DNA of 64,000 nt from Candidatus Magasanikiibacteriota bacterium (GTDB lineage Bacteria > Patescibacteriota > Patescibacteriia > Magasanikbacterales > 2-02-FULL-50-9b): positions 7,252-71,251 of the forward strand of contig CALRDW010000002.1 in the NCBI GenBank assembly GCA_943355025.1, given 5' to 3'. A model generated the notes under the pieces. The model searched no databases. It was not told the DNA's origin and saw nothing but the letters and a program-made list of their open reading frames with translations. Below are positions 1 to 63,933 of the stretch, one piece after another. How positions within the stretch are numbered: position 1 is the first letter of the stretch; each line of letters begins with the position of its first letter. A program made the position numbers and the translations under genes.

Positions 1-47
1 GGCTTGAAAATGAATTCCATGATGAATATCAGCGGCAGATAAATTTA

Positions 48-884
48 TTGGAGATGCGAGGGTTTTTGGAGACTCAGGGCGGAAGAAGGGGAATAGCGGA
101 CGAGCAGGGAAATTTTTATCCAGTGCCTTCGGTCGGCAGTGTCATCGGACGCATCAAAGAAAAAGCAGCGATAATTCAGGAAAAGCGTGCGCAAGGGTTT
201 GAGCGATTTTTACTCGTGCCGTTTGCGTGTAGTCCGAACAAATTCGTTGATGCATACAATGAATATGTAGAGGAACATCCAGATGATTTATTTCAGAGGA
301 ATGGCAAGCCTGTTTCATTGGGGCGAGGAACCGGTGATCCAGCAATGATGCAATCCACTATATTTGGATCGCCGGTCCGCGAGTCACATTATTTTCCAAC
401 GAATTATGATTTTGCGGAAGAGGGTGAACTGCCTACAAAAGAAGAGGTGCTTGCAAAAAAGCAGGGGTCATCAAACAGTTTGTCATTTCCTGGATTTCAG
501 ATGTTATTTCTAGAAAATGATTTAGAAATGGAAGAAAAGTACATGCCGGACATTCCGGACGGTGGCCGTTCTCGGATCAAAAAGGGTAAATCACCGGAAG
601 AATATATGCAACTGCTCGCCGGGTCTCAGCAGTATGCTCACGAGCGCGGACTGACGATTGAGGAATATTTAACGCTTGCGCTTAATGAGCTGGTTTATGG
701 GAGAAAAATCTTAGATGGTGATATAGGGGGTCATGCGTGCATGCTGTTGGGATCATTTTTTTTGAGCATTGATTGCGTTCCATATATTTCGAGCGATCGC
801 ACTGGCGTTGTTTTTATAGGCAGTAGAGTTTCGAATACGCTTATGAGCGAGGATGACGGAATTCGTACGGTGGTTCAACTCTAG
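48..884 (+). CDS. hypothetical protein; member of a two-copy paralog family (second copy 29790..30992)
   Basis: 278-aa ORF. Three collinear similarity blocks with the 29754..30992 product: FERFLLVPFACS~FTRLLIVPFGTS; KGKSPEEYMQLL..ERGLTIEEYLTLAL~AGKSPNDYLELL..ELGLTPEDWLTLFA; GSFFLSIDCVPY~GSYFPDSDDVP. No recognisable catalytic motif. In-frame stop at 18..20, so the start is at TTG 42 or ATG 48. Confidence 0.5.
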   Translation: MEMRGFLETQGGRRGIADEQGNFYPVPSVGSVIGRIKEKAAIIQEKRAQGFERFLLVPFACSPNKFVDAYNEYVEEHPDDLFQRNGKPVSLGRGTGDPAMMQSTIFGSPVRESHYFPTNYDFAEEGELPTKEEVLAKKQGSSNSLSFPGFQMLFLENDLEMEEKYMPDIPDGGRSRIKKGKSPEEYMQLLAGSQQYAHERGLTIEEYLTLALNELVYGRKILDGDIGGHACMLLGSFFLSIDCVPYISSDRTGVVFIGSRVSNTLMSEDDGIRTVVQL

Positions 885-921
885 CGCGTACGTTGACAAG
901 GACAATTTTGTGCGCTAGTCT

Positions 922-2421
922 TTGGGCTCACCACACACGGAGGTTTCGGTGACTGAGAACAGTAAAAAAACGAAGAAAGTTAGGCTGCGGGATTTTTTGC
1001 CATGGCAGGATCCCGATGTCTGTTTGCGGATTGTGCGCTCACCGCGGATGTTGGAGCGTGATGGGGCTGTGTTGCCGCTCGCGCTGCGACCTGTGCTCGA
1101 CCACCTGTATACGCATGTAAGTGCGATTCAACGCGCTCGTATCCCGCTTGAGGACGTTGGTGAGCATCGACGGCAACAAGTGCTCTCTGTGCTGAGCAAG
1201 GTCGCGGGTCGCCCGATTGTGGCGGAGGATTTGCAGGCGTCTATTGAGCAGATCATGGAAGTTGAGAACACTCTTGTGCGCGAATTCGTTTTGGGGCAAT
1301 TTGAGCATCAATACACGCCAGACGGGAAGTTGCATTTGTCAGATCCGCTCGGCCTTGCGCTCATCGCGTTTTATCCGGATTGGGAATTTCGTGGGGACAC
1401 GGTGCACCAGGTCAATCAGGATCAGCGCATCATGAGCATTCGTTCATATCGCGCGCTGTTTCGTTTGATTACCGGCGCATGGCTTCTCGGGCTGCAGCAG
1501 GAAGTTGAGCTCGCGAATACCCGGATCGAGATAATCACAAGTTATTTTGAAAGCGAATTGTTCGAAACACCTAACCACATCAACACCGACTGGGTGAGTG
1601 GCAAGAATCGCGAGATCCCTACAATGTATGTGCGAACAGATCCGGATCGCGGCTTTGCGTTTATGCAGCTCGTTTCCGCAGAGGAACTTCGACTCTTGCC
1701 AAAGGGCGCGGTTATCTCAAAAGTGTCTGCGATGTCGCGATTTGTGCCAGTTGCAAACGGAAATGCTGTTGCGTACATTCCGAATCTAAATTTATCGCGC
1801 CCAAAAGGCGTTGTACCTCAGATTCGCAAACATTTGTTGGGGCGCGCGATTAATGATGGCGTTGGTGTTCGCATTCTCGTGTTTTCACGCGCGGAGTATG
1901 AACGCTTGCAGCCAAAATTTAAGCGCGTTATCTACGACCATGGGATCGCGGAAACAGTTGATGGTGTGCTTCTTGCAAACGTGCGGCCCAATTTGACGAG
2001 TGTGGCGAGCGCGGGTGTTCATTGGCAGGGAAACGTCACAATTGGCAACGATACCGCCGAGGCGCAAATTGTTTCGTTTGAAACCGATTGGAATCGAACG
2101 AAATCGCTTCTTCCTGAAACCGAGGTGTGGTATAAATCGAAGCAATGGTTGTTGCAAGCGAAGGATGATCCGGACGTAATAAATCCATTGCCACCGCTCA
2201 TTCAACTCGTGTTTCCGCCAACGCTGCACCCCGAATGGACGCAGTGGGCCCATATCGTAGATGTGCTCTGTTATCGACTTGATCGCGCAGCGAGTAAACA
2301 TTTCCCCGGGCATTTTGTTGAACGTGGTGCGTGGATTAATCGTGTTCGCAGCGTTCTCATGCGCCGGCACCATGAATGGTCACTGGACGTTAAAGCGAAA
2401 GATTTGCTTCCTAAGAAGTAG
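922..2421 (+). CDS. hypothetical protein (499 aa) in GC-rich island 1
   Basis: Long uninterrupted ORF. Track start is TTG 922; a more likely start is GTG 949, which lies 5 nt after a GGAGG Shine-Dalgarno at 939..943. GC clearly above the window average. No motif I can assign. Confidence 0.5.
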   Translation: MGSPHTEVSVTENSKKTKKVRLRDFLPWQDPDVCLRIVRSPRMLERDGAVLPLALRPVLDHLYTHVSAIQRARIPLEDVGEHRRQQVLSVLSKVAGRPIVAEDLQASIEQIMEVENTLVREFVLGQFEHQYTPDGKLHLSDPLGLALIAFYPDWEFRGDTVHQVNQDQRIMSIRSYRALFRLITGAWLLGLQQEVELANTRIEIITSYFESELFETPNHINTDWVSGKNREIPTMYVRTDPDRGFAFMQLVSAEELRLLPKGAVISKVSAMSRFVPVANGNAVAYIPNLNLSRPKGVVPQIRKHLLGRAINDGVGVRILVFSRAEYERLQPKFKRVIYDHGIAETVDGVLLANVRPNLTSVASAGVHWQGNVTIGNDTAEAQIVSFETDWNRTKSLLPETEVWYKSKQWLLQAKDDPDVINPLPPLIQLVFPPTLHPEWTQWAHIVDVLCYRLDRAASKHFPGHFVERGAWINRVRSVLMRRHHEWSLDVKAKDLLPKK

Positions 2422-2427
2422 GAGGTG

Positions 2428-2458
2428 GCGCGTTTCTTAACCGAAGCGCGTTTTTTTA
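2428..2458 (+). terminator. rho-independent terminator after ORF 922..2421
   Basis: Stem cgcgtttc (2429..2436) / gaagcgcg (2443..2450): 8 bp including one G-U pair. Loop ttaacc. Followed by a T7 run at 2451..2457, directly after the stop codon. Confidence 0.5.
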
Positions 2459-2647
2459 TTTTCAACAGGATTCGGAGGTTTGCGAGCAATACAAAAACAG
2501 CGATTCAACAGAGGCCCAAAGAAAATAAAGTTGCCTCTCAGGGGGAGATGAACACGAGCCCCCGTCGAGACAACTTTATTTTCTTTGGGTATACGTTCAT
2601 TCGGGTGTTATACTGCTCCCATGCTTCCTAATCCTTTTGAAAAACTA
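2451..2647 (+). repeat. copy 1 of a ~195-bp direct repeat containing a nested covarying hairpin, an extended -10 box and an MLPNPF start codon
   Basis: Aligns base-for-base at ~80% identity with 29622..29818. Outer palindrome arms are cccaaagaaaataaagttg (2515..2533) and caactttattttctttggg (2571..2589). Inner stem is ggggg (2541..2545) / ccccc (2559..2563) around the loop agatgaacacgag. Downstream lie TGTTATACT (2606..2614) and an ATG at 2621 that opens a truncated MLPNPFEKLL... ORF ending at 2744..2746. Confidence 0.7.
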
Positions 2648-2650
2648 TTG

Positions 2651-2681
2651 CCGCAGAGCATATTGCGGCATTTTTGTTTTT
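2651..2681 (+). terminator. terminator-like hairpin plus T-run inside the repeat-derived short ORF, upstream of the epimerase gene
   Basis: Stem ccgca (2651..2655) / tgcgg (2664..2668) with loop gagcatat, followed by catttttgttttt. Only a 5-bp stem, so a weak intrinsic terminator or attenuator. Confidence 0.35.
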
Positions 2682-2705
2682 GTATTACACTCCAATCAAC
2701 GAATT

Positions 2706-3641: not shown

Positions 3642-3645
3642 TTGT

Positions 3646-4569: not shown

Positions 4570-4576
4570 CAGCACT

Positions 4577-5329
4577 ATGGAGGACACATACGTTGCTCAA
4601 TATTTAGAGGCTGAAAAAAAACATTGGTGGTGGATTGCGCGAAGAAAAATTATTGAACGCCTCGTTTTAAAGGTTTTAAAGATTAAACAGGAATCAGCGT
4701 TTCGCAGAGCGCTTGAGATCGGTTGTTTCAGCGGCATGAATGTTCAGGCATTGTTGCCTCTTGCTCGTCAGTGGGTTGGAATTGAGCCATCACGTGTCGC
4801 GATTAGTCAGGCGCGTTCCAACGCACCAGAGTTAGAAGTGCATGAAGGTCTGTTTCCAGATGTGCATCCGTCAGGGTCGTTTGATGCTGTTTTTATGCTT
4901 GATGTTCTTGAACACACAGAAGACGCGAGTGTAACCCTTAAAAATGTTTTTTCATGTGTGGAGCCAGGCGGCTATTTTTTCGTTACAGTTCCAGCGTATA
5001 TGTGGTTATGGTCACAGTTTGATATCATTAATCAGCACTATCGACGCTATACACGCCGCCAGTTGGTTAAAGAATTGACGGCCGCGGGTTTCGTGATTGA
5101 GTACGCAGGGTATTTTAATTCATTGCTCTTTGTGCCGGCCGCTGCTCAGCGTCTCTTGAAAAAGAGAGGAGCTTCAAATGTCTCGAACATAGATACAGGT
5201 GCAAAAATTCCGTCGAGCCCCATTAATCTTTTTCTAGGCTTTATTTTTACGCTTGAAAAATATATATTACCGTATGTCAAATTTCCTTTCGGGTTATCCG
5301 TCATTGCAATCGCTCGGCGCCCGCGTTAA
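4577..5329 (+). CDS. class I SAM-dependent methyltransferase
   Basis: Motif I LEIGCFSGMN. The acidic post-I/II motif is LDVLEH. Start moved from the overlapping 4541 to ATG 4577. Confidence 0.7.
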   Translation: MEDTYVAQYLEAEKKHWWWIARRKIIERLVLKVLKIKQESAFRRALEIGCFSGMNVQALLPLARQWVGIEPSRVAISQARSNAPELEVHEGLFPDVHPSGSFDAVFMLDVLEHTEDASVTLKNVFSCVEPGGYFFVTVPAYMWLWSQFDIINQHYRRYTRRQLVKELTAAGFVIEYAGYFNSLLFVPAAAQRLLKKRGASNVSNIDTGAKIPSSPINLFLGFIFTLEKYILPYVKFPFGLSVIAIARRPR

Positions 5330-7028: not shown

Positions 7029-7029
7029 T

Positions 7030-8061
7030 ATGCGACTCCTGCTTATAACACAAACAATTGACGAAGATGATGGCGTGCTCGGATTTATGCACGGTTGGAT
7101 CAGTACCTTTGTCAGTACCTACGATTCAATTGTGGCCGTGTGTTTGCAGCAAGGGACGATACACCTACCGAAAAACGTACAGGTAGTGTCGCTCGGAAAA
7201 GAGTCTCATGCATCTCGCATTTCAATGCTTGTGCGTTTTTTTCGTGCCGTGTGGTTAACCCGCAATAAATGCGATGCTGTTTTTGTTCACATGAATGTCG
7301 AGTATGTTTTACTTGCTGGGTGGTTTTGGAAGCTTCGCGGTAAAAAGGTTTCGCTTTGGTATAACCACAAACAAGGTGGGTTAAAGTTGTGGCTCGCGCG
7401 CCCTTTTTTGGACACAATTTTTTATACTTCATCGCAGGCATATACTGTGCGGTTTTCAAATGCGGTTCGCATGCCTGTTGGAATTGATACGCGAGTATTT
7501 AAATGTTGTACCAAACTTCAGGCACAAAAAAAATCTATCGTGTACATTGGACGAATCGCACCAGTTAAACATTTAGAAATTTTTATCAACGCTGTTAAGG
7601 AATTGGTAAATCGCGGTGCTGCAATTAGTGCGCATATTTATGGAGATGCGCTCGAGCGGGATAAAAAATATTATGAGGAGCTTCGTCAAAGCAGTGTTGA
7701 GCTTGAGTCTCGCGGTGCTATTACTTTTCACTCGCAAGTTCCTAATATTAAAAGTCCTGCTGTGTATAATTCGCATGATATTGTTGTGAACATGACTCCA
7801 GATGGCTCTTTTGATAAAGTTATCATTGAAGGAATGGCATGCGAGCGATTAGTTTTGGTTTCAAATACCGTGCTCAAAGATGTGTTGCCCGCGGAGTGTA
7901 TTTTTTTGCAGAATGACGCGAATGATATGGCGAATAAATTACAGAAGCTGCTTGAGCTTCCTTCGGAGCAGGCAGCTGTGCTTGGCGCGGAGTTTCGGTC
8001 TTATGTAGTTGAACACGAAAGCCTAGATGCATTGATTAAAAAAATTCATCGGTATATTTGA
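7030..8061 (+). CDS. glycosyltransferase family 4 (GT-B fold)
   Basis: C-terminal GT1/GT4 domain signature: GRIAPVKHLEIFINAV....EGMACERLVL. Confidence 0.75.
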   Translation: MRLLLITQTIDEDDGVLGFMHGWISTFVSTYDSIVAVCLQQGTIHLPKNVQVVSLGKESHASRISMLVRFFRAVWLTRNKCDAVFVHMNVEYVLLAGWFWKLRGKKVSLWYNHKQGGLKLWLARPFLDTIFYTSSQAYTVRFSNAVRMPVGIDTRVFKCCTKLQAQKKSIVYIGRIAPVKHLEIFINAVKELVNRGAAISAHIYGDALERDKKYYEELRQSSVELESRGAITFHSQVPNIKSPAVYNSHDIVVNMTPDGSFDKVIIEGMACERLVLVSNTVLKDVLPAECIFLQNDANDMANKLQKLLELPSEQAAVLGAEFRSYVVEHESLDALIKKIHRYI

Positions 8062-8087
8062 GTGCTTTGAGAAAAGTAGTCTATAAA

Positions 8088-8118
8088 AAAGCCGAGCCCC
8101 CATGAGCTCGGATTTTTT
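8088..8118. terminator. bidirectional rho-independent terminator between the 7030..8061 gene (+) and rpmB (-)
   Basis: ccgagc (8092..8097) / gctcgg (8106..8111) stem. A-run upstream and a T6 run (8113..8118) downstream. Confidence 0.6.
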
Positions 8119-8138
8119 AACCGCTGTATTTTTATGAA

Positions 8139-8324
8139 TTACGTGGTGCTTTTTGCAAGCTTTGTCATTGTTTTTGTACAGCGTGTGCATACGAGGATTC
8201 GCTGACCAAACATTCGGCGGGGCTGAACATTAATGCCAACCCAGCGTTTTGATTGGACGTTTGAGTGACTGCGTGTCGCTCCTCGAGTTGGAGCACGTAA
8301 GCAGAGTTTACAGATTTGTGCCAT
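8139..8324 (-). CDS. rpmB: 50S ribosomal protein L28
   Basis: 61 aa, MAQICKLCLRAPTRGATRSHSNVQSKRWVGINVQPRR. Matches the L28 signature (C..CGK.P..G...SHS...TKRRF.PNLQ..R) followed by VCTRCTK. Confidence 0.8.
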   Translation of the reverse strand: MAQICKLCLRAPTRGATRSHSNVQSKRWVGINVQPRRMFGQRILVCTRCTKTMTKLAKSTT

Positions 8325-8404
8325 ACTGTTACAGTTAACAAACTAGAGTTTGAAGTGCCAGCACTGTATCAAATTAGTCTTTTTTTTGCAAGGAGCCCCT
8401 ATAT

Positions 8405-9007
8405 ATGGACCTATTTATCACAATTTTACTCATTGTCGTCGTTGGTTTTTCAGCCATTCTTCATGAAGTGGCTCACGGGCTTGCGGCTCGTGCGCTTGGC
8501 GACAAAACAGCTGAATATGCGGGACGTCTTACGCTTAACCCACTCAAACATCTTGATTGGTTCGGTTCGGTTATCATGCCGTTTTTTTTGAGCCTCGCGC
8601 ATCTTCCTTTGTTTGCATACGCAAAACCAGTTCCGTATAATCCATATAATTTGAGCAATCAGAAATTGGGACCAGCGCTCGTGAGCGCCGCAGGGCCGGG
8701 AACAAATCTGCTTATCGCTATCATCATGGCTGGTTTAATTCGAACAAATTTATTGCCGCTAGGGATACAAAGTTTTTTATTTTTAGTGCTTGAGGTAAAT
8801 GTTTCGCTCGGTATTTTTAATTTGCTGCCAATCCCGCCACTCGATGGATCAAAACTTTTGTATGCTTTTTTGCCGAGACGATTTGATCATATAAAATATA
8901 CGCTCGAACGGTACGGCATCTTCATCGTTTTTATTTTTATTTATTATTTCAGCTGGATTCTTCTTCCAATACTCAATTTCGTAGAGCGAATACTTATTGG
9001 CTCTTAG
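8405..9007 (+). CDS. site-2 protease family zinc metallopeptidase (M50)
   Basis: HEVAH (HExxH) in TM helix 1. LLPIPPLDGSKLL (LDG motif) in a later TM helix. AGGAG Shine-Dalgarno upstream of the ATG. Confidence 0.75.
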   Translation: MDLFITILLIVVVGFSAILHEVAHGLAARALGDKTAEYAGRLTLNPLKHLDWFGSVIMPFFLSLAHLPLFAYAKPVPYNPYNLSNQKLGPALVSAAGPGTNLLIAIIMAGLIRTNLLPLGIQSFLFLVLEVNVSLGIFNLLPIPPLDGSKLLYAFLPRRFDHIKYTLERYGIFIVFIFIYYFSWILLPILNFVERILIGS

Positions 9008-10194
9008 GAATTAAGTGTCTTGCAACGCAATATCTCAGTCATGATTGTTTCTGAACGCTCTGCCCAACTATATTTTTTTACTCGTTCAAACGCGGCAGCG
9101 ACTCGATTCAGGTACAACTCGGGATGCTCCGCTGCGCTACGGATTGCATTTACAAGTGCGGTTGGATTATTAGGTTCAATTAAAATTGCTGAAGAGTCAT
9201 CTACTATTTCACAAATAGAGGGTAGTCGTGATGCAATAATAAGACGTTGTGCCGCCATGTATTCGAAAAGCTTCAGTGGCGAGGTGTGGTGTTCTGAAAT
9301 GCGTGAGCCGGATTTGTTTGGCAGAATCGCCATGTCCGCTGCTGCAAGGTACATGCGAACCATGTCGGTATTCGAATGACCAACAAGGGTAATGTGCGGG
9401 AACGCTTTATATTCATCCATAAGAATAAGTTCCTCTGGATGGCCACCAATAAGTATTATGCGGATGTGATCATGCGCGAGTATTTTTGCAGCTTCAAGTA
9501 AAATATCCACGCCCTTCCAGGAATGTTGAAAAAAACTTCCAGTGTAAACAGCAACAACATCTTCCGGCGGAATGTTGAGACTGAGACGTGCTACTTTTTT
9601 GTTTGTTGCCACATCAAATTTCTTCAAGTCAATTCCATCAGGAGCAACTAAAATATCATTAGGCGCGACACCAAGCGAAATCAAATCTTGTTTTAAGCCA
9701 TGTGTGATCGCAACAATCATCCCTACGCGTCGTAATAACAATCGAAATATTCTCGATGGTCGCGCTGGCAGTGTGTGCGCTTCCCAAATTGCATTTCGAA
9801 ACAGTGCGGCAACAAATAATTCTCGGCTGTAAATAATCCGCTGCGTTTTTCGATGGCATATACAGTAAATTATGAGGCTCAGCATAAACGTACTTGCCTG
9901 TATCCAATATGCTAATCGGCCAAGCCATATCGCGCTAAAAATAGTGTCGATACACCAGAGACGAATTATTGTAAAAGTTTTTTCAAATCCGTAATAAGTA
10001 AACGCATCCGTCCCAAGAGCGTTTTTTCGATTTGGAATAATGAGCGCGAAATCAATTTTTTTTTCCGCGCAGATTTTTTTTAGCTCTGCACACATCGACA
10101 TGATTTGTATCCCGTGCGCCCGCTCAACAGGCAGACGGTTGTTAGTAATGTACAGAAACTCGGCTATATTTTTTTCTTTAAAGGCTTGTTGCAT
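9004..10194 (-). CDS. glycosyltransferase family 4 with N-terminal hydrophobic region
   Basis: GT4 C-terminal motif EHHTSPLKLFEYMAAQRLIIAS (E-x7-E). N-terminal TM-like segment. Confidence 0.8.
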   Translation of the reverse strand: MQQAFKEKNIAEFLYITNNRLPVERAHGIQIMSMCAELKKICAEKKIDFALIIPNRKNALGTDAFTYYGFEKTFTIIRLWCIDTIFSAIWLGRLAYWIQASTFMLSLIIYCICHRKTQRIIYSRELFVAALFRNAIWEAHTLPARPSRIFRLLLRRVGMIVAITHGLKQDLISLGVAPNDILVAPDGIDLKKFDVATNKKVARLSLNIPPEDVVAVYTGSFFQHSWKGVDILLEAAKILAHDHIRIILIGGHPEELILMDEYKAFPHITLVGHSNTDMVRMYLAAADMAILPNKSGSRISEHHTSPLKLFEYMAAQRLIIASRLPSICEIVDDSSAILIEPNNPTALVNAIRSAAEHPELYLNRVAAAFERVKKYSWAERSETIMTEILRCKTLNS

Positions 10195-24197: not shown

Positions 24198-24971
24198 ATG
24201 AGCACATTTCAAGTTGACTATTCTCGGATGTATGATGCGCTCTACGCAAAAAAAGATTATCCGCGCGAAGCTACGGCTGTCCATGAGCTACTGCAGAAGT
24301 TTTGTAGCACTGCGCCACAGCGGCTTCTCAGCATTGGTGCAGGTACACTAGGTCATGAGCAATTGCTTTTGCCTCACGGATATAATATTACATGCATTGA
24401 TAGTTCATCAGAGATGGTTCGCATCGCGCAGCAAAAAATTTCTCAGCAGGAATTAAAAAATATTACCATTGCTGAAGGAGACATGGAAGATCTTCAGTTT
24501 GTCGGCGCGGAATTTGATGCAGCGGTATCGCTCTTCAATGTTATTTCTTATTGTTCGAATGATGAAGCTCTTGAAAAAGTTTTTTCCGGCGTCGCTTCCG
24601 CACTGAAGCCGAACGGAATATTTATTTTTGATTGTTGGAATGGAGAGTCGGTACGTAAAGACCCGCCACATGACAAATTTGCAAAATTTATTGATGGCGA
24701 TTCTAAACTTTATCGGTATACACGAGCAATTCCTGAGATAGAAAAAGGTGTTGTTACAATCCAGTTTGATGTTTTACATACACAGGGCAGTGCGATTATT
24801 AGTGAAACGCAGGAGACACATGCCGTTCATTTTTGGGACGCAGCACAGTTGAAAATTTTACTCGCGCATCATGGGTTTGAGATTGTGCACGTCAGTAATT
24901 TTCCGGACATTGGCAATATGAATATCGATAATTCTTGGACGATGTGCGTAGTTGCACGTAAATTAAGTTAA
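24198..24971 (+). CDS. class I SAM-dependent methyltransferase
   Basis: Motif I LLSIGAGTLGHE and the post-I acidic residue. 257 aa. Confidence 0.7.
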   Translation: MSTFQVDYSRMYDALYAKKDYPREATAVHELLQKFCSTAPQRLLSIGAGTLGHEQLLLPHGYNITCIDSSSEMVRIAQQKISQQELKNITIAEGDMEDLQFVGAEFDAAVSLFNVISYCSNDEALEKVFSGVASALKPNGIFIFDCWNGESVRKDPPHDKFAKFIDGDSKLYRYTRAIPEIEKGVVTIQFDVLHTQGSAIISETQETHAVHFWDAAQLKILLAHHGFEIVHVSNFPDIGNMNIDNSWTMCVVARKLS

Positions 24972-26341: not shown

Positions 26342-27166
26342 ATGAAAATTGGAATTATCGGTGTCGGTGTTGTCGGTGGCGCAGTAAAACATGGTTTTGA
26401 GCGTCTTGGCCACCACGTTATTGGGCACGACATTAAAATTCAAGATTCAAAAATAGAGCACGTTATCCCTACCGATATTTCGTTTATTTGTGTACCAACA
26501 CCGCAGACGGCGAGTGGTGCTTGTGATGTATCGTATGTTGTCGGGGTTATTCGTGAGCTTGAAGAACAAAATTATACCGGTGTCGTTGTTATCAAATCAA
26601 CGGTAACGCCAGGAACAACGGAGCGCCTTTCAAAGATGACAAAACTACGACTCGCTTTTTGTCCAGAATTTCTGCGCGAGCGAGCAGCAATTACTGATTT
26701 TGCAGAAAATCACGACGTGTGTGTTATCGGGACAGAAGATGAGGAAATTTATAAAATGGTTGTAGAAGCGCACGGGCGTTATCCAAAAAAATTTGTTCGG
26801 TTGACGCCGACTGAAGCGGAATTTACAAAATATTTTTCAAATGTATTCAACGCGCTTCGTATTACATTCGCGAATGAGTTTTTTGAAGTATGTCGCACTG
26901 CGGGTGTTAATTATAATAATATAAAAACAGCAATGGTAAATCGTGACACGATCATGGATGTATATTTGGACTGCAATGAAAACCTTCGAGGTTTCGGCGG
27001 CGTTTGTTTGCCAAAGGACACAAGTGCTTTTGCACACTATGTTGAATCACTCGGGCTCGATCTCAAATTGTTTCAGCTCATCGTTGAAGAAAATAAAAAG
27101 TTTAAAAGGACTGTTTTAGATGGGATGCGTGATTTTGATCCGACAACCGACGCGAACCCGCTATAA
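26342..27166 (+). CDS. UDP-glucose/GDP-mannose 6-dehydrogenase-family protein lacking the C-terminal nucleotide-sugar-binding domain
   Basis: MKIGIIGVGVVGGAV Rossmann N-terminus. CPEFLRERAAITDF matches the NPEFLREG motif. The catalytic Cys is present in GGVCLPKD. The ORF ends ~45 aa later at 274 aa, whereas family members are 390-440 aa. Confidence 0.65.
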   Translation: MKIGIIGVGVVGGAVKHGFERLGHHVIGHDIKIQDSKIEHVIPTDISFICVPTPQTASGACDVSYVVGVIRELEEQNYTGVVVIKSTVTPGTTERLSKMTKLRLAFCPEFLRERAAITDFAENHDVCVIGTEDEEIYKMVVEAHGRYPKKFVRLTPTEAEFTKYFSNVFNALRITFANEFFEVCRTAGVNYNNIKTAMVNRDTIMDVYLDCNENLRGFGGVCLPKDTSAFAHYVESLGLDLKLFQLIVEENKKFKRTVLDGMRDFDPTTDANPL

Positions 27167-28162
27167 TTTACGCGGGTGTGCGATGTACCAATCGTAGGTT
27201 TTTTTAAGCCCATCTTTAAGAGATGTTCGAGGCTCCCATCCGACGAGTGATTTGATTTTTGAAATATCCGCACAGCGGCGCATTACGCTTCCTGCAGGTG
27301 ATTCCTTGATTTCAATATTGGTCGGGCGCCATCCGCCAATTTCGAATAGAAGATCTGCCAAGCCTCCCATCGTAATTTCGTCTGACGCTCCAATGTGGAC
27401 TGTTTCGACAGGGTGTCCATCGGTTTTTGAACTTCGCATTAATTCTGACATTGCTTCAACCGCATCAGTAATGTAGCAAAATGTGCGCGTCTCTTCTACA
27501 CCAAAGATAGGAAACGGATCTGTATGCGCGGCAATGCGACCTGACATTTCCGGTATCACATGGTCATAGCCTGCACGCGGTCCATAAAAATTATGTGGCC
27601 GAACAATGAGCGCACGAAAATTATATTGAGCCGCATAATGAATGACGAAACATTCACCGATTAATTTTGTTGCTGCATATGTCCACCGCGGATTGTAGGG
27701 ATCTTCAATAACAAGTGGCACAGCTTCTGGCGTTGGAATCGGAAGCTGATTAAATGCGCTGAGGCCACCAGCATATGCCTCGTTTGACGAGGTAAAACAA
27801 AATTTGCCGGCTGCATTTTTTGTGCGGTGCCAATCGAGCATGTTCATCAAACTTTGCATGTTGATACGGAGCACTTCGTGTGGCATTGTATAAAATAATT
27901 TTGTTCCGTTTACTGCTGCAAGGTGGTACACATGTTCATAGTCAGAATCGAGTTGCGTATAAAAAGAATTGTCCGTCAAGTCGCCGCGCAAAAGAGTGAC
28001 GCGCGGGTTTGACGAAATTTCAGCAAAATCAGAATCATCTTTTCCGCGTGAAAAATTATCAACAATCGTTATGGCAGTCTCCGGCTCGGTTGCTAAAAGA
28101 TGGCGTGTTAGGTGTAAGCCAATAAAACCAGAGCCACCAGTGATCAAGACTTTTTTAGTCAT
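27161..28162 (-). CDS. NAD-dependent epimerase/dehydratase (extended SDR; UDP-glucuronate decarboxylase/dTDP-glucose dehydratase-like)
   Basis: KVLITGGSGFIGLHLTRHLL N-terminus. YAATK catalytic YxxxK. 333 aa. Confidence 0.8.
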   Translation of the reverse strand: MTKKVLITGGSGFIGLHLTRHLLATEPETAITIVDNFSRGKDDSDFAEISSNPRVTLLRGDLTDNSFYTQLDSDYEHVYHLAAVNGTKLFYTMPHEVLRINMQSLMNMLDWHRTKNAAGKFCFTSSNEAYAGGLSAFNQLPIPTPEAVPLVIEDPYNPRWTYAATKLIGECFVIHYAAQYNFRALIVRPHNFYGPRAGYDHVIPEMSGRIAAHTDPFPIFGVEETRTFCYITDAVEAMSELMRSSKTDGHPVETVHIGASDEITMGGLADLLFEIGGWRPTNIEIKESPAGSVMRRCADISKIKSLVGWEPRTSLKDGLKKTYDWYIAHPRKL

Positions 28163-28295
28163 AGGATTATTTAATATTTGCAGTTTAACTCAATTGATTG
28201 ACCTTGACTAGGTGCCTTATTTATCGTATTGTCTCTTCGAACCTTTGCACTGTGCACAGGGGTCCTGCGTGGAAACACACATAAATAGGCTAAAA

Positions 28296-28973
28296 ATGGA
28301 AGTCAAGATTGGAGCGCGGTTGCGTCGAAGCAAGCGGCTGGGCGGTGTTCAGCACGTCGTCTTTACCGAAAACGGTGTGGATAAACCTGACAAAGTCGCA
28401 TTTTCTGGGGAAACAGTGCGCAGTATCTTTGATGATTACTGCGAAAGGTTGCTGCGCGACAAGGTAATGTTACCTAGTGCCGCACCCTTGGTAGAGCGTC
28501 TTGAAGCTTTGTTGGAGGCGGCGGCTGACTACCGAGCCATGATTGAGCTCCGAACAGTGATCGACAAGTGGGTTTCGGATGGTTCGCTTGCGGACGCCGG
28601 AATGCTCGATGAGATGTTTACGGCCTACGCTGCGGCGCATCCGGACAAAGTGTTCGACATCGGCGAAGATTTGCCAGAAGAAGTGCCGAAAATCATTTCG
28701 ACGCACGGACCACTGCAGCAAGCGGGTTTGCGACGCATGGGGTCCTCACCGGGCTCAACCGAGGTTGGCGGGGCCGTTGACGCAGCGGCTCTCGCAGCCC
28801 TCGCAGTTCTTCCTCCACGCGGGGATCGGTCTGCCGCGCGCACGTCCCAGGTTGTGCGTGGAATTCCAAGCGCGGATGATGGGAATGAGGATTTGCATGA
28901 GCTTGGGGAAGAGGATATCAAGGAACTTGGAAAGAACCCTAGCATTGGTGTGGGTTCTGGTGGCGAGCAATAG
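28296..28973 (+). CDS. hypothetical protein in GC-rich island 2 (tandem paralog of 29149..29562)
   Basis: ORF with ~57% GC in a ~40% GC background. N-terminal ~100 aa align with the next ORF (RLRRSKRL..VQHVVFTENG ~ QLRKTPRL..MPYVVFYENG). Ala/Gly-rich acidic C-terminus. Confidence 0.4.
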   Translation: MEVKIGARLRRSKRLGGVQHVVFTENGVDKPDKVAFSGETVRSIFDDYCERLLRDKVMLPSAAPLVERLEALLEAAADYRAMIELRTVIDKWVSDGSLADAGMLDEMFTAYAAAHPDKVFDIGEDLPEEVPKIISTHGPLQQAGLRRMGSSPGSTEVGGAVDAAALAALAVLPPRGDRSAARTSQVVRGIPSADDGNEDLHELGEEDIKELGKNPSIGVGSGGEQ

Positions 28974-29148
28974 CAAACATGGGCAAACCCTGTTGGGAGC
29001 ATGGTTCAATTCCGTCGCGTGTCACTTATTTGTGGCTCACGACGGTTTTTTTATTTTGCAGCTCCGTTGACAAAAAACAATGTTTATACTAGTATCCAAA
29101 AAGAACTTTAACTGCCGCCACATTGTGTGGTCACACTCCGAGGACACG

Positions 29149-29562
29149 ATGAAGAACCGATTGAGTGTTCAATTGCGCAAAACGCCACGACTTCCGATGC
29201 CCTATGTCGTTTTCTATGAAAATGGCGAGGCGGTTCCACTTTTGTGTGTAACGTGGCAGACAGCGATGGCACGGCTCGACGAAATGTTCCGCATGCCGGA
29301 CAGTAAATTGTTTCGCGGTGATATGACATACGCCGAGGCGTATCACATCGCGTCGCTTCTCGAAAGTTTTCTTGAACTTGGGCTGGTCAAAGCGCGCGGC
29401 TTCATTGACGAGATGATCGAAGATCGTATCGCGCGCGGCATCTCAACTGATGTTGGCGACGCGGTGAGCGTGCTCGTTGTTCCGGTGCCGACTGCATCTG
29501 AAAAAATGGTGGCTGAAGATTATGCTGTAGGGGCAACTGGCGAAAAAAAATCTCAGTGGTGA
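29149..29562 (+). CDS. hypothetical protein (tandem paralog of 28296..28973)
   Basis: See previous entry. Start moved to ATG 29149. GC-rich. Confidence 0.35.
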   Translation: MKNRLSVQLRKTPRLPMPYVVFYENGEAVPLLCVTWQTAMARLDEMFRMPDSKLFRGDMTYAEAYHIASLLESFLELGLVKARGFIDEMIEDRIARGISTDVGDAVSVLVVPVPTASEKMVAEDYAVGATGEKKSQW

Positions 29563-29621
29563 AAGCTCAGGCGTAGAAGTTTGATAGCGTGCAATGGTAA
29601 CCTGATTGGTTGCTCTGCACG

Positions 29622-29818
29622 TTTTTTATTTTCAACAGAATTCGGAAGTTTATGAGTAGTTCAATACAGTGATTCAACATGCACCCAAAGAATTAAATAT
29701 TACTTCTCAGGGAGAGATGAACATGAGCTCCCGTCGAAGTAATATTTAATTCTTTGGGGATACGTTCATTCAGGTGTTATACTACTCCCATGCTTCCCAA
29801 TCCTTTTCAAAAACCTCT
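29622..29818 (+). repeat. copy 2 of the ~195-bp direct repeat / structured leader
   Basis: Arms cccaaagaattaaatattacttc (29684..29706) and gaagtaatatttaattctttggg (29736..29758) are perfect reverse complements. Inner stem gggag (29710..29714) / ctccc (29728..29732) surrounds the loop agatgaacatgag. TGTTATACT lies at 29775..29783 and the ATG at 29790. Confidence 0.7.
29775..29792 (+). promoter_or_regulatory. extended -10 promoter (TGnTATACT) positioned for a leaderless transcript starting at ATG 29790
   Basis: TG-T-TATACT, then 6 nt, then ATG. No Shine-Dalgarno is present. An identical arrangement is found at 2606..2623. Confidence 0.4.
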
Positions 29819-30992
29819 CACAGAGTTTAAAGACACAGATCCTCTTAAGAACAGAGAGATTGTTAGAGAACTTCTCGGACCAGAGGGAGTACATAAATAT
29901 AGAAAGATATTAGGAGACACTTCAGACCCTACTCCAAAGCGAGACAAAGAACTCTCTAAAGAAGATCTCCTTGCCATGGCGGCAGAAGCCCACTCTAAAA
30001 TAGATACACTGTCCAGAGACTCAGTAAAGCCAATCCTCGAGCGCCTCATAGAGCGCCAATACACTTCTCAGATCCAATCTCTGCAAGAGATTGGATTCCT
30101 AGAACCTCTCGTACCACAAAAAAAGAAAGGCTTTACCATTTTCAAATCAAAAGAACCAGAAGAAACTACACCAGAGAAACTAGGGGCTACAGACATCCTC
30201 GGTACCTTCCGAGAAGTTCCAACCGAAGAAGCCATCAAAAATCACTTCCTCTCCATTCCTAACATCAAACAAAAGATAGATCAAGGATTCACCCGACTTC
30301 TCATCGTTCCATTCGGAACTTCTCTCGACACCCTCCGCTCTAAAACAGGAGAGCTTATCAAGAAGCATAAGAAAGAAAACAAACTTCTCGCAGAAGATGG
30401 AACAGAATTAGAACTCGACACTACAACACCACTCTGGGCATGGGACGGCTATAACAACGCAGACAAGAGCGGGAAACTCGTCTATTACCCAGAGCAATTC
30501 AATAAAGAAAATCACAACGGTACAACTAAAACAGAACTCCTTTCGTCCACCCCGTCAAACCAAGCAAACTCTTCCACACCAAACACCAATCCATTCCCCG
30601 GCTACCATATTCTTCTTATTCAGGAAGACACACAGATTCCACGAGAAGGAAAGGGAACAGCAAAAGCAGGGAGAGATAAAATAGAAGCAGGTAAGTCTCC
30701 AAACGACTATTTAGAACTTCTAAGAACTGATCCTAACTACTCAAAAGAACTCGGTCTCACTCCAGAAGATTGGCTCACTCTCTTTGCAACGAATCTTAAT
30801 CAGAAGAACAAAGTTATTAATGACTGGCAGTCAAATAAAGACAGTATTAATTATCTAGTCGGTAGTTATTTTCCAGATTCTGACGACGTCCCGAACGCGT
30901 GCTGGGACCGTGGCGCTCGGCGGGCGCACTTGTACGGGGGCGAGCCGACGAACGCGTACGAGCATTTTGGCGTTGCTGGCGCGGTGGGGTGA
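29790..30992 (+). CDS. hypothetical protein; second member of the paralog family (see 48..884)
   Basis: Homology blocks listed under 48..884. The ATG at 29790 (MLPNPFQKP) is the one conserved in both repeat copies; track start 29754 lies inside the structured element. The last ~130 nt (DDVPNACWDRGARRAHLYGGEPTNAYEHFGVAGAVG) are sharply GC-rich, unlike the rest of the gene. Confidence 0.5.
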   Translation: MLPNPFQKPLTEFKDTDPLKNREIVRELLGPEGVHKYRKILGDTSDPTPKRDKELSKEDLLAMAAEAHSKIDTLSRDSVKPILERLIERQYTSQIQSLQEIGFLEPLVPQKKKGFTIFKSKEPEETTPEKLGATDILGTFREVPTEEAIKNHFLSIPNIKQKIDQGFTRLLIVPFGTSLDTLRSKTGELIKKHKKENKLLAEDGTELELDTTTPLWAWDGYNNADKSGKLVYYPEQFNKENHNGTTKTELLSSTPSNQANSSTPNTNPFPGYHILLIQEDTQIPREGKGTAKAGRDKIEAGKSPNDYLELLRTDPNYSKELGLTPEDWLTLFATNLNQKNKVINDWQSNKDSINYLVGSYFPDSDDVPNACWDRGARRAHLYGGEPTNAYEHFGVAGAVG

Positions 30993-31218
30993 ATTAAACT
31001 TTAATTTTTCATTCTTTCTTTAACTTTTATTTTTATTTTTACGGCGAAAAGTAACCTGCTGTGATGTAGGCTGCCGTAAATTCCGACGCTAGAGCAGTGT
31101 GGAAATTGTAAATATAAATATATTTTTACACCACTGAAGCCTAGGAGCAAAAGTAATTATAATCCCCACCGCTCCGTTGTGAAAAACATAAATCAACAGT
31201 AGTTGAGATTTCGGCAGA

Positions 31219-31248
31219 TTGACAAAAAGATAAAAGGATGCTAATCTC
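31219..31248 (+). promoter_or_regulatory. sigma70-like promoter for the 31328 gene
   Basis: TTGACA (31219..31224), 18-nt spacer, TAATCT (31243..31248). Confidence 0.4.
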
Positions 31249-31327
31249 CGAATCGCTTCTGCTCTGCGCTGTGCACGCTGAAGTGGTCGGTTTAGGTCCT
31301 ACACAATTGGTTTTTGAGGAGAGTACG

Positions 31328-31999
31328 ATGGCAGGCCAGGAAAAAATTAATGGCGAGAATCCGGAGGTGTATTTTGCCGCGTGCTCCGCGGGACATCCGA
31401 AGCATCCGGATGGGCGATGTACGCCACACAAGTTTTCGATCGAGTTTTTCCCATTTGGAAGCAAGCTGTTTCCCGGTGAGCCAGTTGTGCTGCTTAACGA
31501 TGGTTTTAACATCGTTGACTTTAGTCCATCGTGGTCAAAGAGTAGCGCGATCGAATTGATTCGTCGGCTGACGAATTTACCGTGCGGCGGAAGCATCGAA
31601 CCATCGGATGTGATCGAGCTGGAAAAAAAGTTGGACACCTGGGATATGCCCCAAGAGGCAACCTTGTCCGATAAGTTGTATGCAGCTCATTGCGTTACTC
31701 TAAAGAACCATCGAGCCATCTGTGCAAAAATCAAAAGTCTTGAGCTGAGTTTGGGCGGTATGGCTGAGTCGTTTGATGGTATAAAACAACTCATCGCCAA
31801 CGCACAGGCAGCTACAGAACAGCAGATTAGCGTACTCCAAGCCAGCAATGATAATCTTACGACGAAGAATGCGCAACTCGAAGACGAACTACGGCGCGTT
31901 CGTACGGCGAATGAACTAGCTCATCAGGCCAATCGAGAGCTGAGGGCGCAGCTCGGCGCTCACACAGAAATCGAAGGATGTAGATCTTGGAACGAATAA
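31328..31999 (+). CDS. hypothetical protein with C-terminal coiled coil
   Basis: Start moved to ATG 31328 (MAGQEKING). Cys/His-rich N-terminal half (CSAGHPKHPDGRCTPH). C-terminal heptad-like QQISVLQASNDNLTTKNAQLEDELRRVRTANELAHQANRELRAQL. GC-richer than background. Confidence 0.4.
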   Translation: MAGQEKINGENPEVYFAACSAGHPKHPDGRCTPHKFSIEFFPFGSKLFPGEPVVLLNDGFNIVDFSPSWSKSSAIELIRRLTNLPCGGSIEPSDVIELEKKLDTWDMPQEATLSDKLYAAHCVTLKNHRAICAKIKSLELSLGGMAESFDGIKQLIANAQAATEQQISVLQASNDNLTTKNAQLEDELRRVRTANELAHQANRELRAQLGAHTEIEGCRSWNE

Positions 32000-32014
32000 C
32001 ATAAACGAGGTAAT

Positions 32015-32064
32015 GCGCGCCCCAAATTGTTCTGCGGAACAAGGGTGGGCGCGCTGTTTTTATT
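32015..32064 (+). terminator. rho-independent terminator after 31328..31999, overlapping the stop codon of the convergent acyl-CoA synthetase gene
   Basis: gcgcgccc (32015..32022) / gggcgcgc (32047..32054) stem followed by tgtttttattt. Confidence 0.5.
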
Positions 32065-34039
32065 TCGCGATATTTTTTATTTCATTGAATATTTCTGAGT
32101 GCTGAATATGTGCGAGTGCGCCGACATCACGGCCGAGATACGCAGCAACGTATTTTTTTCGTGGAATTTTTCCAGATAATGTTCGAGGCGCCGCGGTAAT
32201 TATAAAAAATTCATCGGGCTTTGCAAGCGGATCGTATACTTCGCCAACACGGCGGCGAAGCCCGGGGATCGCCGCCTCAGCATCTGCTGTTGAAACTTCC
32301 GTGGCCGCAACAAGAAAACATACGATTTTTTGGCCCCATTCGTTGTGCGGAACTCCGATCGCAATAGCCTCTTTAATTAGATGCTCTGGCGCACTCGTGA
32401 GCGCCGCTTCGATTTTAACCGGATCAATCTTTACAGCTTTGCGTACGATTAAATCATCTGCGCGTCCCGTCAAAAACCAGTAACCATCCTCATCACTATA
32501 TCCACGATCACCGTGGCGCCACTCATTTTTATTTTCTGAAAAGTACGTCTCTTCAAAGAGACTCTGATTTTTAAAAAACCCACGCGACATCGAAGGAAAT
32601 GGTTTTCGGCACACAAGAAATCCCTCCTCATTTGTTTTTGCATCAATATCTTCGTCTGTTACGATTGCAACATCCATTCCAAGTCCGCGTGTGCCGACGC
32701 TTGAAATTTTTTGCGGCATAATCGGGAGCGGTGAAACAAAGCATCCGATCAATTCTGTGCCGCCAGAAATATTCATGATGGGGCAGCGGCTGCCACCTAT
32801 TTTTTCGAAAAACCATCGGTACTCTTTTTCGCCGAGCGGCATGCCGGTTGATCCGAGAATGCGTAGATCTGGAAAACGCGTGTTTTCGTATGCACCAGAA
32901 TGCATGAGCTGTGAAATTTGCGGTGGCGTTGTTCCAAAAATAGTAACGCGATAATCCGTCAGGATTCGTTCGAGTCTGTGGGGTTTTGGGTGGAGGAGCG
33001 AGCCAGTTGCGATTACAATCGTGCCGCAAAAAAAATGTACACCAACAAGTTCCCACGGCGCCATCATCCATCCGAAATCTGTTGTCCAAAAAAAGACATC
33101 ATTTTTTTCTGTTTGATAATCAAATATATATCCGATTTCTTTTGCAGTTTGCGCGATCACTCCACCATGCGTGTGCACAATCATTTTTTGTTTTCCGGTT
33201 GTACCGGAAGAAAATAAAATGAGCGCAACAGTTTCAGCGGCAAGATTTTTTGTCGCGGGCGTTTTTGTGTGCGCGCTGGCGACCAAAAATTGTTCCCACG
33301 TTTTTGTGTGCGCAAGATTTTTAAATGGAGTGTCGACTGCCGGAAAAATTATTTGTTCAAGATTATTTTCTGAGAGTAACGCGTGTGTGCGGTCAAGTGA
33401 AAAAATTCGTCCCGCGTTTTGATATCCGTTGTCAACAAAAATGACATGTGCGTCGCCAGCATGCGCAAATTCCGCAACTTGTTCTGCACCAAGACGCGGA
33501 GAAATTTGCATGACTGCGACGCCGAGTTTAAAACCCGCATACATGAGTGCAACAGACTCTGGCGAGAGGCTCATACAGGAACATATCACGTCGCCAGAAG
33601 AAATTCCTCGTGCCGTGAGCCCTCGTGCGACCTCGTCAATTTTTTGTGCGAGCCTTGTATAAGTTATGGTTTCATTAACGCCGTTTTCTGTATCAAAAAT
33701 GAGCGCGACCGCATCGCCTCGACCTTCTGCATTGTGTCGGTCGACACAATTATCCGTAATATTTAATTCACCGCCGCTGAACCAGGTTGCGCGTGAAAAA
33801 CCGCCAGAGGCATCAAGAAGAGTGGTGTATGGTTTTTGCCACGAAACGCCGAGATCGTCGAGTGCTGCGCGCCAAAACCACTCAGTATTGTTGCATGATC
33901 GGTTGACGAGTTCTTGCCAGCTTGCAATAGTGTGTGTACGTATGAAACGAGCGACGCGGCTCGTCTCCAGCAGCTCTTTTGTTGGTTGCCACACGAATTT
34001 ATGCATAAGAATTGGCTTAATGCTACCAAATATGTACAA
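32060..34039 (-). CDS. AMP-forming acyl-CoA synthetase, acetoacetyl-CoA synthetase-like (Acs/AACS family)
   Basis: SSGTTGKQK AMP-binding motif. NCVDRH N-terminal block. KFVWQPTKELLETSRVARFI resembles the AACS N-terminus. 659 aa. Track start is TTG 34039; ATG 34006 (MHKFVWQP) is an alternative. Confidence 0.75.
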   Translation of the reverse strand: MYIFGSIKPILMHKFVWQPTKELLETSRVARFIRTHTIASWQELVNRSCNNTEWFWRAALDDLGVSWQKPYTTLLDASGGFSRATWFSGGELNITDNCVDRHNAEGRGDAVALIFDTENGVNETITYTRLAQKIDEVARGLTARGISSGDVICSCMSLSPESVALMYAGFKLGVAVMQISPRLGAEQVAEFAHAGDAHVIFVDNGYQNAGRIFSLDRTHALLSENNLEQIIFPAVDTPFKNLAHTKTWEQFLVASAHTKTPATKNLAAETVALILFSSGTTGKQKMIVHTHGGVIAQTAKEIGYIFDYQTEKNDVFFWTTDFGWMMAPWELVGVHFFCGTIVIATGSLLHPKPHRLERILTDYRVTIFGTTPPQISQLMHSGAYENTRFPDLRILGSTGMPLGEKEYRWFFEKIGGSRCPIMNISGGTELIGCFVSPLPIMPQKISSVGTRGLGMDVAIVTDEDIDAKTNEEGFLVCRKPFPSMSRGFFKNQSLFEETYFSENKNEWRHGDRGYSDEDGYWFLTGRADDLIVRKAVKIDPVKIEAALTSAPEHLIKEAIAIGVPHNEWGQKIVCFLVAATEVSTADAEAAIPGLRRRVGEVYDPLAKPDEFFIITAAPRTLSGKIPRKKYVAAYLGRDVGALAHIQHSEIFNEIKNIAK

Positions 34040-63818: not shown

Positions 63819-63860
63819 CAGTTCCTCTCGCAGCTAAATTTTTTTGCTGCTTTTTAAAAT

Positions 63861-63933
<73 letters not shown>

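Follow-up and report, generated by a model that had tools for sequence, protein, structure and literature searches.

Introduction

The diversity-generating retroelement (DGR) of Bordetella phage BPP-1 is made up of Mtd, a template repeat (TR), Avd, and Brt (PMC3240598). DGRs of clade 2 are restricted to the Patescibacteria and have targets without recognizable domains (Roux et al., 2021; PMC8144416); the approach used in that study would not detect remote targets. DGRs of the candidate phyla radiation (CPR) are said usually to have one target (Wu et al., 2018; PMC5758913), and in Treponema denticola one retroelement is thought to serve TvpA and seven related remote targets (PMC5758913). Here we analyze a 64,000-nucleotide stretch of contig CALRDW010000002.1 from a Candidatus Magasanikiibacteriota bacterium (the window) and, within it, gene C (29790..30992, + strand), which encodes a 400-residue protein of an unannotated, Patescibacteria-restricted family. 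The GC-rich 3' end of this gene is very probably a DGR variable region (VR), making the product a DGR variable protein and the gene a remote target.

Gene C lies in a region (28200-32050) that an earlier description, made from the letters of the window and referred to below as the original prediction, took for one acquired or hypervariable, GC-rich island of hypothetical genes, with gene C bearing a recombined mosaic end. In our assessment, the region is probably composite: the end of gene C is a DGR variable region, and genes A, B, and D and an open reading frame (ORF) at 922-2421 are separate, lineage-restricted genes that were likely acquired. A vague "foreign island" label is thereby replaced by a specific and testable mechanism for gene C. 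The case also indicates that remote DGR targets missed by cassette-based finders can be recognized from an abrupt GC-rich end on a gene that is otherwise low in GC.

The system resembles the DGRs of Patescibacteria and the CPR in its host group, in the target-TR-bAvd-RT order of related loci (RT, reverse transcriptase), in having domainless targets with a C-terminal VR, and in mismatches that are specific to adenines. It differs from them in possessing extra TR copies without an RT, and the copy in the window is without TR, Avd, and RT. It would share with the Treponema denticola system several scattered paralogous targets per retroelement, and by eye the scaffold of the VR (W..R....A.R....P......G.R) resembles the end of C-type-lectin VRs of the formylglycine-generating enzyme (FGE) type. 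However, we found no sequence or structural similarity to TvpA or FGE, the phylum is a different one, and the targets described here share a 5' hairpin cassette. The system resembles that of BPP-1 in the inferred mutagenesis of adenines between TR and VR, in the occurrence of an Avd-family protein in relatives, in the hairpin that lies downstream of the VR, and in a 3' VR block that is GC-rich and differs from the TR in the way that the initiation of mutagenic homing sequence (IMH) differs from IMH* (PMC3240598). Unlike BPP-1, the system is cellular rather than phage-borne, the Avd gene of the relatives is located between TR and RT on the opposite strand, the hairpin does not directly follow the IMH but lies ~45 nt past the stop codon, and there is no fold match to Mtd.

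Results and Discussion

Adenine-Specific Divergence at the 3' End of Gene C

The original prediction that gene C is low in GC except for its last ~130 nt is correct: the final 133 nt have a GC content of 0.647, compared with 0.422 in the remainder of the gene. When the compared loci were searched with tblastn, a second copy of only the last 37 codons of gene C was found ~250 nt downstream of P0004, an 83% paralogue (family members and loci are given P and L numbers). This copy (L014:11451-11565) reads GAC AAC GTC CCG AAC GCG TAC TGG AAC ..., corresponding to GSDNVPNAYWNRGNKQANLNRDDPANVNENIGVSGAAG. Such richness in Asn and AAC is, judged on sequence, the signature of a DGR template repeat. A second copy (L015:20231-20330) is likewise located ~250 nt downstream of a paralogue, P0007, in the window's own genome; it is missing the last ~15 nt, continues directly into a terminator that also serves the convergent RNase Y gene, and is either a cassette relic or a satellite template. 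The VR of gene C covers 30875..30989 (+ strand; GC 0.647).

The VR of gene C is identical to the L014 TR at 85/115 positions, and the changes affect 15/29 adenine sites and 15/86 other sites. When the five VRs (those of C, P0002, P0004, P0007, and P0008) were compared with both TR copies, each showed an excess of change at TR adenines (Fisher p from 1.5e-2 to 8e-11), with substitutions to G, C, and T. As an internal control, the two TR copies compared with one another gave no adenine bias (p 0.56). Over the first 91 nt, all 28 TR-adenine sites vary among the five VRs, against 18/63 non-adenine sites (p 1.3e-11). Full randomization at adenine sites would give 75% difference. Gene C and its closest paralogue, P0002, differ at 64% of adenine sites, at 6% of non-adenine VR sites, and over 11% of the gene body; the VRs have therefore been rewritten after the paralogues diverged. 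These comparisons rest on consensus assemblies; the strain contigs L017 and L018 end before the VR. The last ~24 nt of the VR (30966-30989) form a GC-rich block that reads TGGCGTTGCTGGYGCGGTGGGG in all five VRs and CGGGGTGTCTGGTGCGGCGGGG in the TR. By analogy, this difference resembles that between IMH and IMH*, which would give the block a comparable function.

The mosaic end of gene C had been attributed to recombination. In place of recombination, the adenine-specific differences from the TR point to DGR retrohoming. Conversion without an RT, in which TR-like copies would serve as silent cassettes in the manner of pilS donating to pilE, would be in keeping with the partial 3'-end copies found downstream of some family genes that have no adjacent RT, and the conserved flanks of the family could support such recombination. 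Conversion would, however, copy the donor faithfully, whereas the differences seen are at donor adenines and lead to G, C, and T. Six other contigs, moreover, carry RT and bAvd beside the repeat. We consider this explanation highly improbable.

In the mechanism that we propose, an RT acting with bAvd would copy TR RNA and misincorporate opposite adenines, and the resulting cDNA would replace the last ~115 nt of the target gene (the VR, 30875-30989). Some nine Asn-templated codons would be randomized, while the scaffold VP.A.W.R...A.L...P......G...AVG would stay fixed. Adenine loss in the VR, together with a TR sequence of ~59% GC, would produce the sharp GC-rich tail on a low-GC gene.

Source of the Template and Reverse Transcriptase

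No second copy of 30860-30992 exists in the window (repeat search with seed 8, and blastn), and tblastn with the RT and Avd of L022 located neither gene in the window, in L013-L019, or in L026. There is thus no TR, Avd, or RT in the window, which makes gene C a remote target. It must be served in trans, a step that we infer. A scan of the window for the YxDD motif of RTs gave a sole match, which was an epimerase.

These absences count against retroelement-driven diversification of gene C, as do several other observations. Neither Avd nor RT is present next to the L015 TR copy. Around ten non-adenine positions are fixed in all five VRs and differ from the L014 TR; the VRs have in common a T at index 42, a G at both 51 and 75, and TATGGCGTTGCTGG as the 3' block. 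As templates for the VRs, both TR copies of this lineage are imperfect, and we therefore postulate a master TR. Identical P0007 and P0008 sequences recur in several assemblies. The predicted structure of the gene C product (AlphaFold2 model, pLDDT 83.6) has no significant match in PDB or BFVD, which leaves display of the VR on a C-type-lectin (or Ig) fold hypothetical.

Most of these points could be explained by a fossil element, meaning that the VRs were diversified formerly, the retroelement is now inactive or lost, and the TR copies are decaying relics. The non-adenine differences between all VRs and both TR copies, the truncated and RT-less TR copy of P0007, the failure to find RT or Avd in ~120 kb of same-sample sequence, and the identity of P0007 and P0008 between assemblies all fit this alternative. 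On the other hand, the adenine sites are near saturation (64%, against 11% in the body), and the non-adenine scaffold (6%) is better conserved than the body. Saturation and a conserved scaffold imply that diversification continued after recent duplications and that the scaffold is still under constraint. The L014 contig, which carries P0004 and the full-length TR, stops 22 nt past the TR, the exact place where Avd and RT follow in all relatives, and the non-adenine differences common to all VRs would fit an unseen master TR. A fossil element is, on balance, somewhat unlikely.

A Dispersed Family of Probable Targets

The product of gene C has 27 homologues among 5.8 billion proteins, none of them with a Pfam domain. 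The first ~40 residues are almost invariant in the family alignment. By contrast with this N terminus, the last ~45 residues are hypervariable in the 26 family members, even among those that are 85-87% identical, and they vary on a fixed scaffold, VP.A.W.R...A.L...P......G...AVG. The genes of the region had been described as lacking any recognizable function; this applies to A, B, and D, which match no family, and not to gene C, a DGR target. The family is found almost exclusively in metagenome-assembled genomes (MAGs) of Patescibacteria. Three of its loci (L007-L009) come from a MAG labeled "uncultured Gammaproteobacteria"; all other matches are to Patescibacteria, and this MAG is probably mis-binned or mislabeled.

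At least five dispersed paralogues bear a VR. Three of them (C, P0007, and P0008) share one contig, and two others (P0002 and P0004) were recovered from the same sample. P0008, flanked by relA and topA, and P0007, flanked by hup and rny, both lie to the right of the window. Two ENA contigs match the ends of the window with 100% identity and reach beyond it, L015 on the right and L019 on the left, where it covers 1-9734 and continues leftward. The left edge of the window (1..884, + strand) is the 3' part of a 367-residue family member without a VR (it matches C in tblastn with E 3e-19); this gene in full, and P0015 as another VR-less member, are situated just left of the window. The 367-residue member has native-like codon usage and no similarity to the TR, and another VR-less member, P0009, has an ordinary, low-GC 3' end. 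The dispersed, multi-copy nature of the family means that C is no island gene. It is a remote member of a dispersed target family that is unusually large for a CPR genome.

Complete target-TR-bAvd-RT cassettes accompany family genes in L004 and L021-L025. In L004, from a Berkelbacteria MAG, a 936-residue protein carries the domain of this family at its end, and a TR is located 250 nt downstream. All seven VR/TR mismatches are at adenines (7/27 versus 0/86), and the TR is followed by bAvd (PF22296, 46.3 bits; cutoff 40) and RT fragments. Adenine changes likewise predominate in the Patescibacteria contig L006 (10/23 versus 2/100 at other sites). Searching JGI metagenomes for the TR core yielded five contigs, every one with target(s), TR, bAvd, and RT; bAvd is on the opposite strand, the RT is ~340 residues long with an IGNLTSQ motif, and one contig has two family targets. 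Domain scores were 60.7 and 64.1 bits for RVT_1 (L022 and L024) and 43.8 bits for bAvd PF22296 (L022). The contigs with cassettes come from hosts of 35% to 52% GC, and the TR core is conserved among them at the nucleotide level. The TR/VR sequence itself has ~59% GC; because the core is conserved across such hosts, the VR stands out by its high GC content in a genome of 44% GC.

In three related lineages, a (GA)n tract breaks the RT frame in the same place, immediately 5' of the GIPIGNLTSQ motif (L004:4715-4758, 44 nt; L021:1111-1130, 20 nt; L023:1306-1323, 18 nt). L022, L024, and L025 have an intact RT and no tract. The tract could be a slipped-strand on/off switch of the retroelement or an assembly error at the repeat; our literature search found no report that ties DGRs to repeat-mediated phase variation.

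Conserved Flanks of the Family Genes

Immediately upstream of gene C is a cassette (29622..29789, + strand) consisting of a T-run, a 75-nt hairpin (29685-29757), and a TATACT box (29778-29783) that stands 6 nt before the ATG. The core motif of this cassette precedes every family gene of this lineage. An orphan copy (2452..2645, + strand) contains the hairpin (2515-2589), TATACT, an ATG at 2621, and eight family codons (MLPNPFEK), and it is followed by a terminator-like hairpin (2650-2682) and then by the glycan locus, which opens with an epimerase gene (ATG 2707). The motif occurs nowhere else in the window. The two copies, spaced 27,169 bp apart, make up a ~195-nt direct repeat (2452-2645 and 29622-29814) that is 81%-84% identical; between them lie the entire glycan locus and genes A and B. 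The repeat corresponds to the 5' cassette of the family through its first codons, MLPNPF. The orphan cassette could promote or dampen expression of the glycan operon; alternatively, it could be the trace of an old recombination event.

The 5' hairpin is stable in both copies (-39.5 kcal/mol, z -6.3, at 29685-29757; -46.7 kcal/mol at 2515-2589) and is positioned ~30 nt upstream of the family genes, with further copies in L013, L014, L015, L019, and L026. Its outer stem has 23-24 bp, and 15/25 stacked positions show compensatory double changes across six copies, counted with an anchored script. The inner stem also covaries (GGGAG/CTCCC versus GGGGG/CCCCC), and the junctions and apical loop are conserved. 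The hairpin ends ~20 nt before the TATACT box and so could be situated 5' of the transcription start.

When five 3' flanks were aligned, a conserved segment became apparent behind the VR-bearing genes (30993..31185, + strand, at gene C), containing a two-tier hairpin (31038-31080) and the motif GAGCAAAAG.AATTATAATCCCCACCG. The hairpin (-15.6 kcal/mol, z -2.0) lies ~45 nt past the stop codon. It has a constant internal segment, GAAAAGTAAC, and stems that differ between copies yet remain mutually complementary. It may be the target-recognition structure of the DGR. The flank leads into the TR in the sister loci L014 and L015 and into gene D here. No Rfam family matched the 5' and 3' hairpins, even at E<=1.

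Patescibacteria are believed to be attached to host cells in life. A set of at least five proteins diversified by a retroelement, with one of their genes beside a glycan locus, could plausibly constitute a host-recognition repertoire. Leads on the regulation of such a repertoire come from the 5' hairpin and from the (GA)n tracts seen in the RT genes of relatives. A more far-reaching proposal would join one trans-acting DGR, at least five variable proteins with a scaffold that detectably resembles no solved structure, a shared hairpin cassette from which each is expressed and which also heads the 25-kb glycan locus, satellite TRs at some of the targets, and, in related lineages, a (GA)n switch within the RT gene into a system of coordinated surface variation in an episymbiont; we regard this as unlikely.

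Base Composition of the Window

The mean GC content of the window is 44.3%. In 200-nt windows, GC rises to 0.50-0.655 at 28200-29000 and 0.51-0.54 at 29100-29600, with a dip to 0.44-0.45 in the spacer between genes A and B, and the jump described for 28200..29600 is therefore real. Most of gene C has a GC content of 0.38-0.46. The stretch 31240..32050 had been credited with ~55%-58% GC, and its elevation is in fact mild (0.46-0.515). At the left edge, where 1..2440 had been called GC-rich, this holds for ~900-2400, and 1-900 is at 0.42-0.47.

The GC content at third codon positions (GC3) was tested for each of 59 genes (mean 0.395, SD 0.050). The outliers are exactly four: gene A (28296..28973, 225 residues; GC 0.565, GC3 0.562, z +3.3), gene B (29149..29562, 137 residues; GC3 0.536, z +2.8), gene D (31328..31999, 223 residues; GC3 0.513, z +2.4), and the 499-residue ORF at 922..2421, just upstream of the orphan 5' cassette (GC3 0.548, z +3.1), all on the + strand. 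Every other gene has z <= +1.3, and gene C as a whole is normal (z +0.4). Raw tetranucleotide distance alone is raised for ORF 922-2421, A+B, and D. Karlin's dinucleotide distance delta*, from which base composition has been removed, is ordinary for all of them (z +0.2, -0.3, and -0.2, respectively). The uniform signature that the original prediction had itself named as counting against an island is thus what normalization gave for the GC-rich genes.

The strongest signature outlier of the window is instead the low-GC body of gene C (29790-30859; delta* z +10.4). A and C are abundant on its coding strand, where third positions have C at 0.27 and G at 0.14, versus 0.17 and 0.21 genome-wide; TG, GT, and CG are depleted and TC, AG, and CT enriched. 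All VR-bearing paralogues (C, P0002, P0004, P0007, and P0008) share this skew, whereas the VR-less P0015 and 367-residue members are native-like and do not have it. The composition anomaly of the region is real and has two separate causes, the DGR variable region and the orphan genes.

The GC-Rich Orphan Genes

Among the same 5.8e9 proteins, gene A matched only itself; the protein search with gene D likewise gave a self match only, so that both are listed as ORFans, and gene B has no homologue in the compared loci or in phages. A, B, D, and ORF 922-2421 belong to no Pfam, PHROG, or NCBIfam family. ORF 922-2421, the product of which is probably 457 residues long with a start at M43, has 11 remote relatives (24%-39% identity); the closest of them has a GC3 of 0.60 and is found among TGT, UvrD, and NDK genes on a contig of ~50% GC. 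Pfam lent no support to ORF 922-2421 as an RT or to A and B as Avd proteins.

A and B were correctly recognized in the original prediction as tandem paralogues. They align over their first ~95 residues (25% identity, pairwise E 4e-5) with a Smith-Waterman z of 6.7-7.8, equaled by 0-1 of 2000 shuffles; as far as sequence can tell, they are true paralogues sharing an N-terminal domain. Gene A differs from strain L017 at two positions, both synonymous. Strain divergence is 0.29% for A and 0% for B, no more than that of the flanking glycan genes (0.35%), and A and B are therefore not hypervariable. The hypervariability proposed for the region holds for the 3' end of gene C.

Each of genes A, B, C, and D has its own terminator-like hairpin, which from the sequence defines four separate monocistronic units. 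These units stand between an epimerase gene at 27161-28162 and the acyl-CoA synthetase gene at 32060-34039. Gene A is followed by a hairpin and T-run at 29012-29052. Within this terminator, the string "ggttcaattcc" had been considered as a tRNA fragment or att site, for which ARAGORN and Rfam were negative. Gene B has a promoter-like site (29067-29095) and a terminator hairpin with T-run (29586-29623). The individual terminators and the synonymous strain differences in A indicate that A, B, D, and ORF 922-2421 are probably real genes.

Gene D stands where TR, Avd, and RT sit in canonical cassettes. Its start is most likely, from the sequence context, the ATG at 31328 behind a GAGGAG Shine-Dalgarno motif and not position 31238, which overlaps the -10 box of a proposed consensus promoter (31219..31248). 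That promoter has a perfect TTGACA and a 17-nt spacer; the -10 box, TAATCT, matches TATAAT at only 3/6 positions, and the site was not listed by the scan. The coiled-coil protein that had been anticipated is consistent with the AlphaFold2 single-sequence model of gene D, which predicts a helix at 116-222 (pLDDT 85-97 over ~150-210, <50 in the N-terminal half), and with weak, sub-threshold coiled-coil Pfam matches. The C-terminal helix of the model probably forms a coiled coil. Gene D is closed by a hairpin and T-run (32015..32064, + strand; hairpin 32015-32054) adjoining the stop codon of the convergent acyl-CoA synthetase gene. Claimed to be a strong bidirectional terminator, it is strong (-30.8 kcal/mol, z -3.7), but its U-tract is on the + strand only.

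The question of a single acquired island can now be addressed. The elevation of GC and GC3 is real for genes A, B, and D as well as for the end of C; both A and D are ORFans; and a 195-nt direct repeat does bracket the glycan locus plus A and B. In their atypical GC and GC3 and their orphan status, A, B, D, and ORF 922-2421 resemble the contents of a classical genomic island. In other respects, the resemblance fails. The four genes of the region are separate transcription units, the low-GC body of C is that of a dispersed native family, its 3' end corresponds to a DGR template with differences specific to adenines, delta* is ordinary for A+B, D, and ORF 922-2421, A and B do not vary unduly between strains, and the direct repeat is the family's own 5' cassette and marks no island boundary. 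Neither a tRNA nor an att-like feature is present; no search for integrase genes was made. The region has been seen in same-population assemblies only, at 99.6%-100% identity and with the same gene order, and among these there is no presence/absence polymorphism. A single hypervariable island with a recombined end to gene C is consequently improbable. What is present is a known mechanism, a DGR, plus compositionally odd orphans, with no firm evidence of an acquired or hypervariable island.

As for the orphans individually, we consider it most likely, with moderate confidence, that A, B, D, and ORF 922-2421 were taken up from somewhat GC-richer relatives, probably other Patescibacteria; they would be individually transcribed genes that entered a variable neighborhood of family-C genes. 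GC3 and ORFan status, the sole grounds for acquisition of A, B, and D, make it possible and leave it unproven. Several results speak against acquisition. The GC-normalized dinucleotide signature of A, B, and D is native-like; ARAGORN and Rfam detected no tRNA gene near them, the sole tRNA of the window being tRNA-Met at 63859-63932; and the window contains no RT or Avd homologue, nor do the four GC-rich proteins contain mobility domains, integrases and other mobility genes not having been searched for in the window. A donor among GC-richer Patescibacteria would, however, have a similar dinucleotide signature.

Alternatively, A, B, D, and ORF 922-2421 could be native or young de novo genes in which gene-specific constraint raises GC3. 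Their native-like delta*, the lack of a nearby tRNA gene, the same gene order in all assemblies, and the GC3-rich hypothetical neighbors of other family loci (0.53 and 0.59 in L026) agree with a native origin. Against it, GC3 is raised by +0.12 to +0.17 in exactly the four genes that have no homologues or only remote ones, and the amino-acid composition of these GC-rich genes is not extreme. We hold a native origin possible but doubtful, and continue to favor uptake.

The L026 neighbors, which share no homology with genes A, B, and D, flank P0009 (4777-5598 and 7926-8633, compared with a GC3 of ~0.39 in the adjoining genes). Their presence hints that genes of odd composition accumulate around the loci of the family. 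GC-rich ORFans do not always stand beside family genes, as they are absent in L013, L014, and L015.

Strain differences in the glycan locus are clustered (26410-26476 and 24710-24740, versus L017 and L018), and in both other assemblies 13 differences fall within 67 nt of a UDP-glucose dehydrogenase-like gene. This clustering suggests a small recombination tract rather than scattered point mutations.

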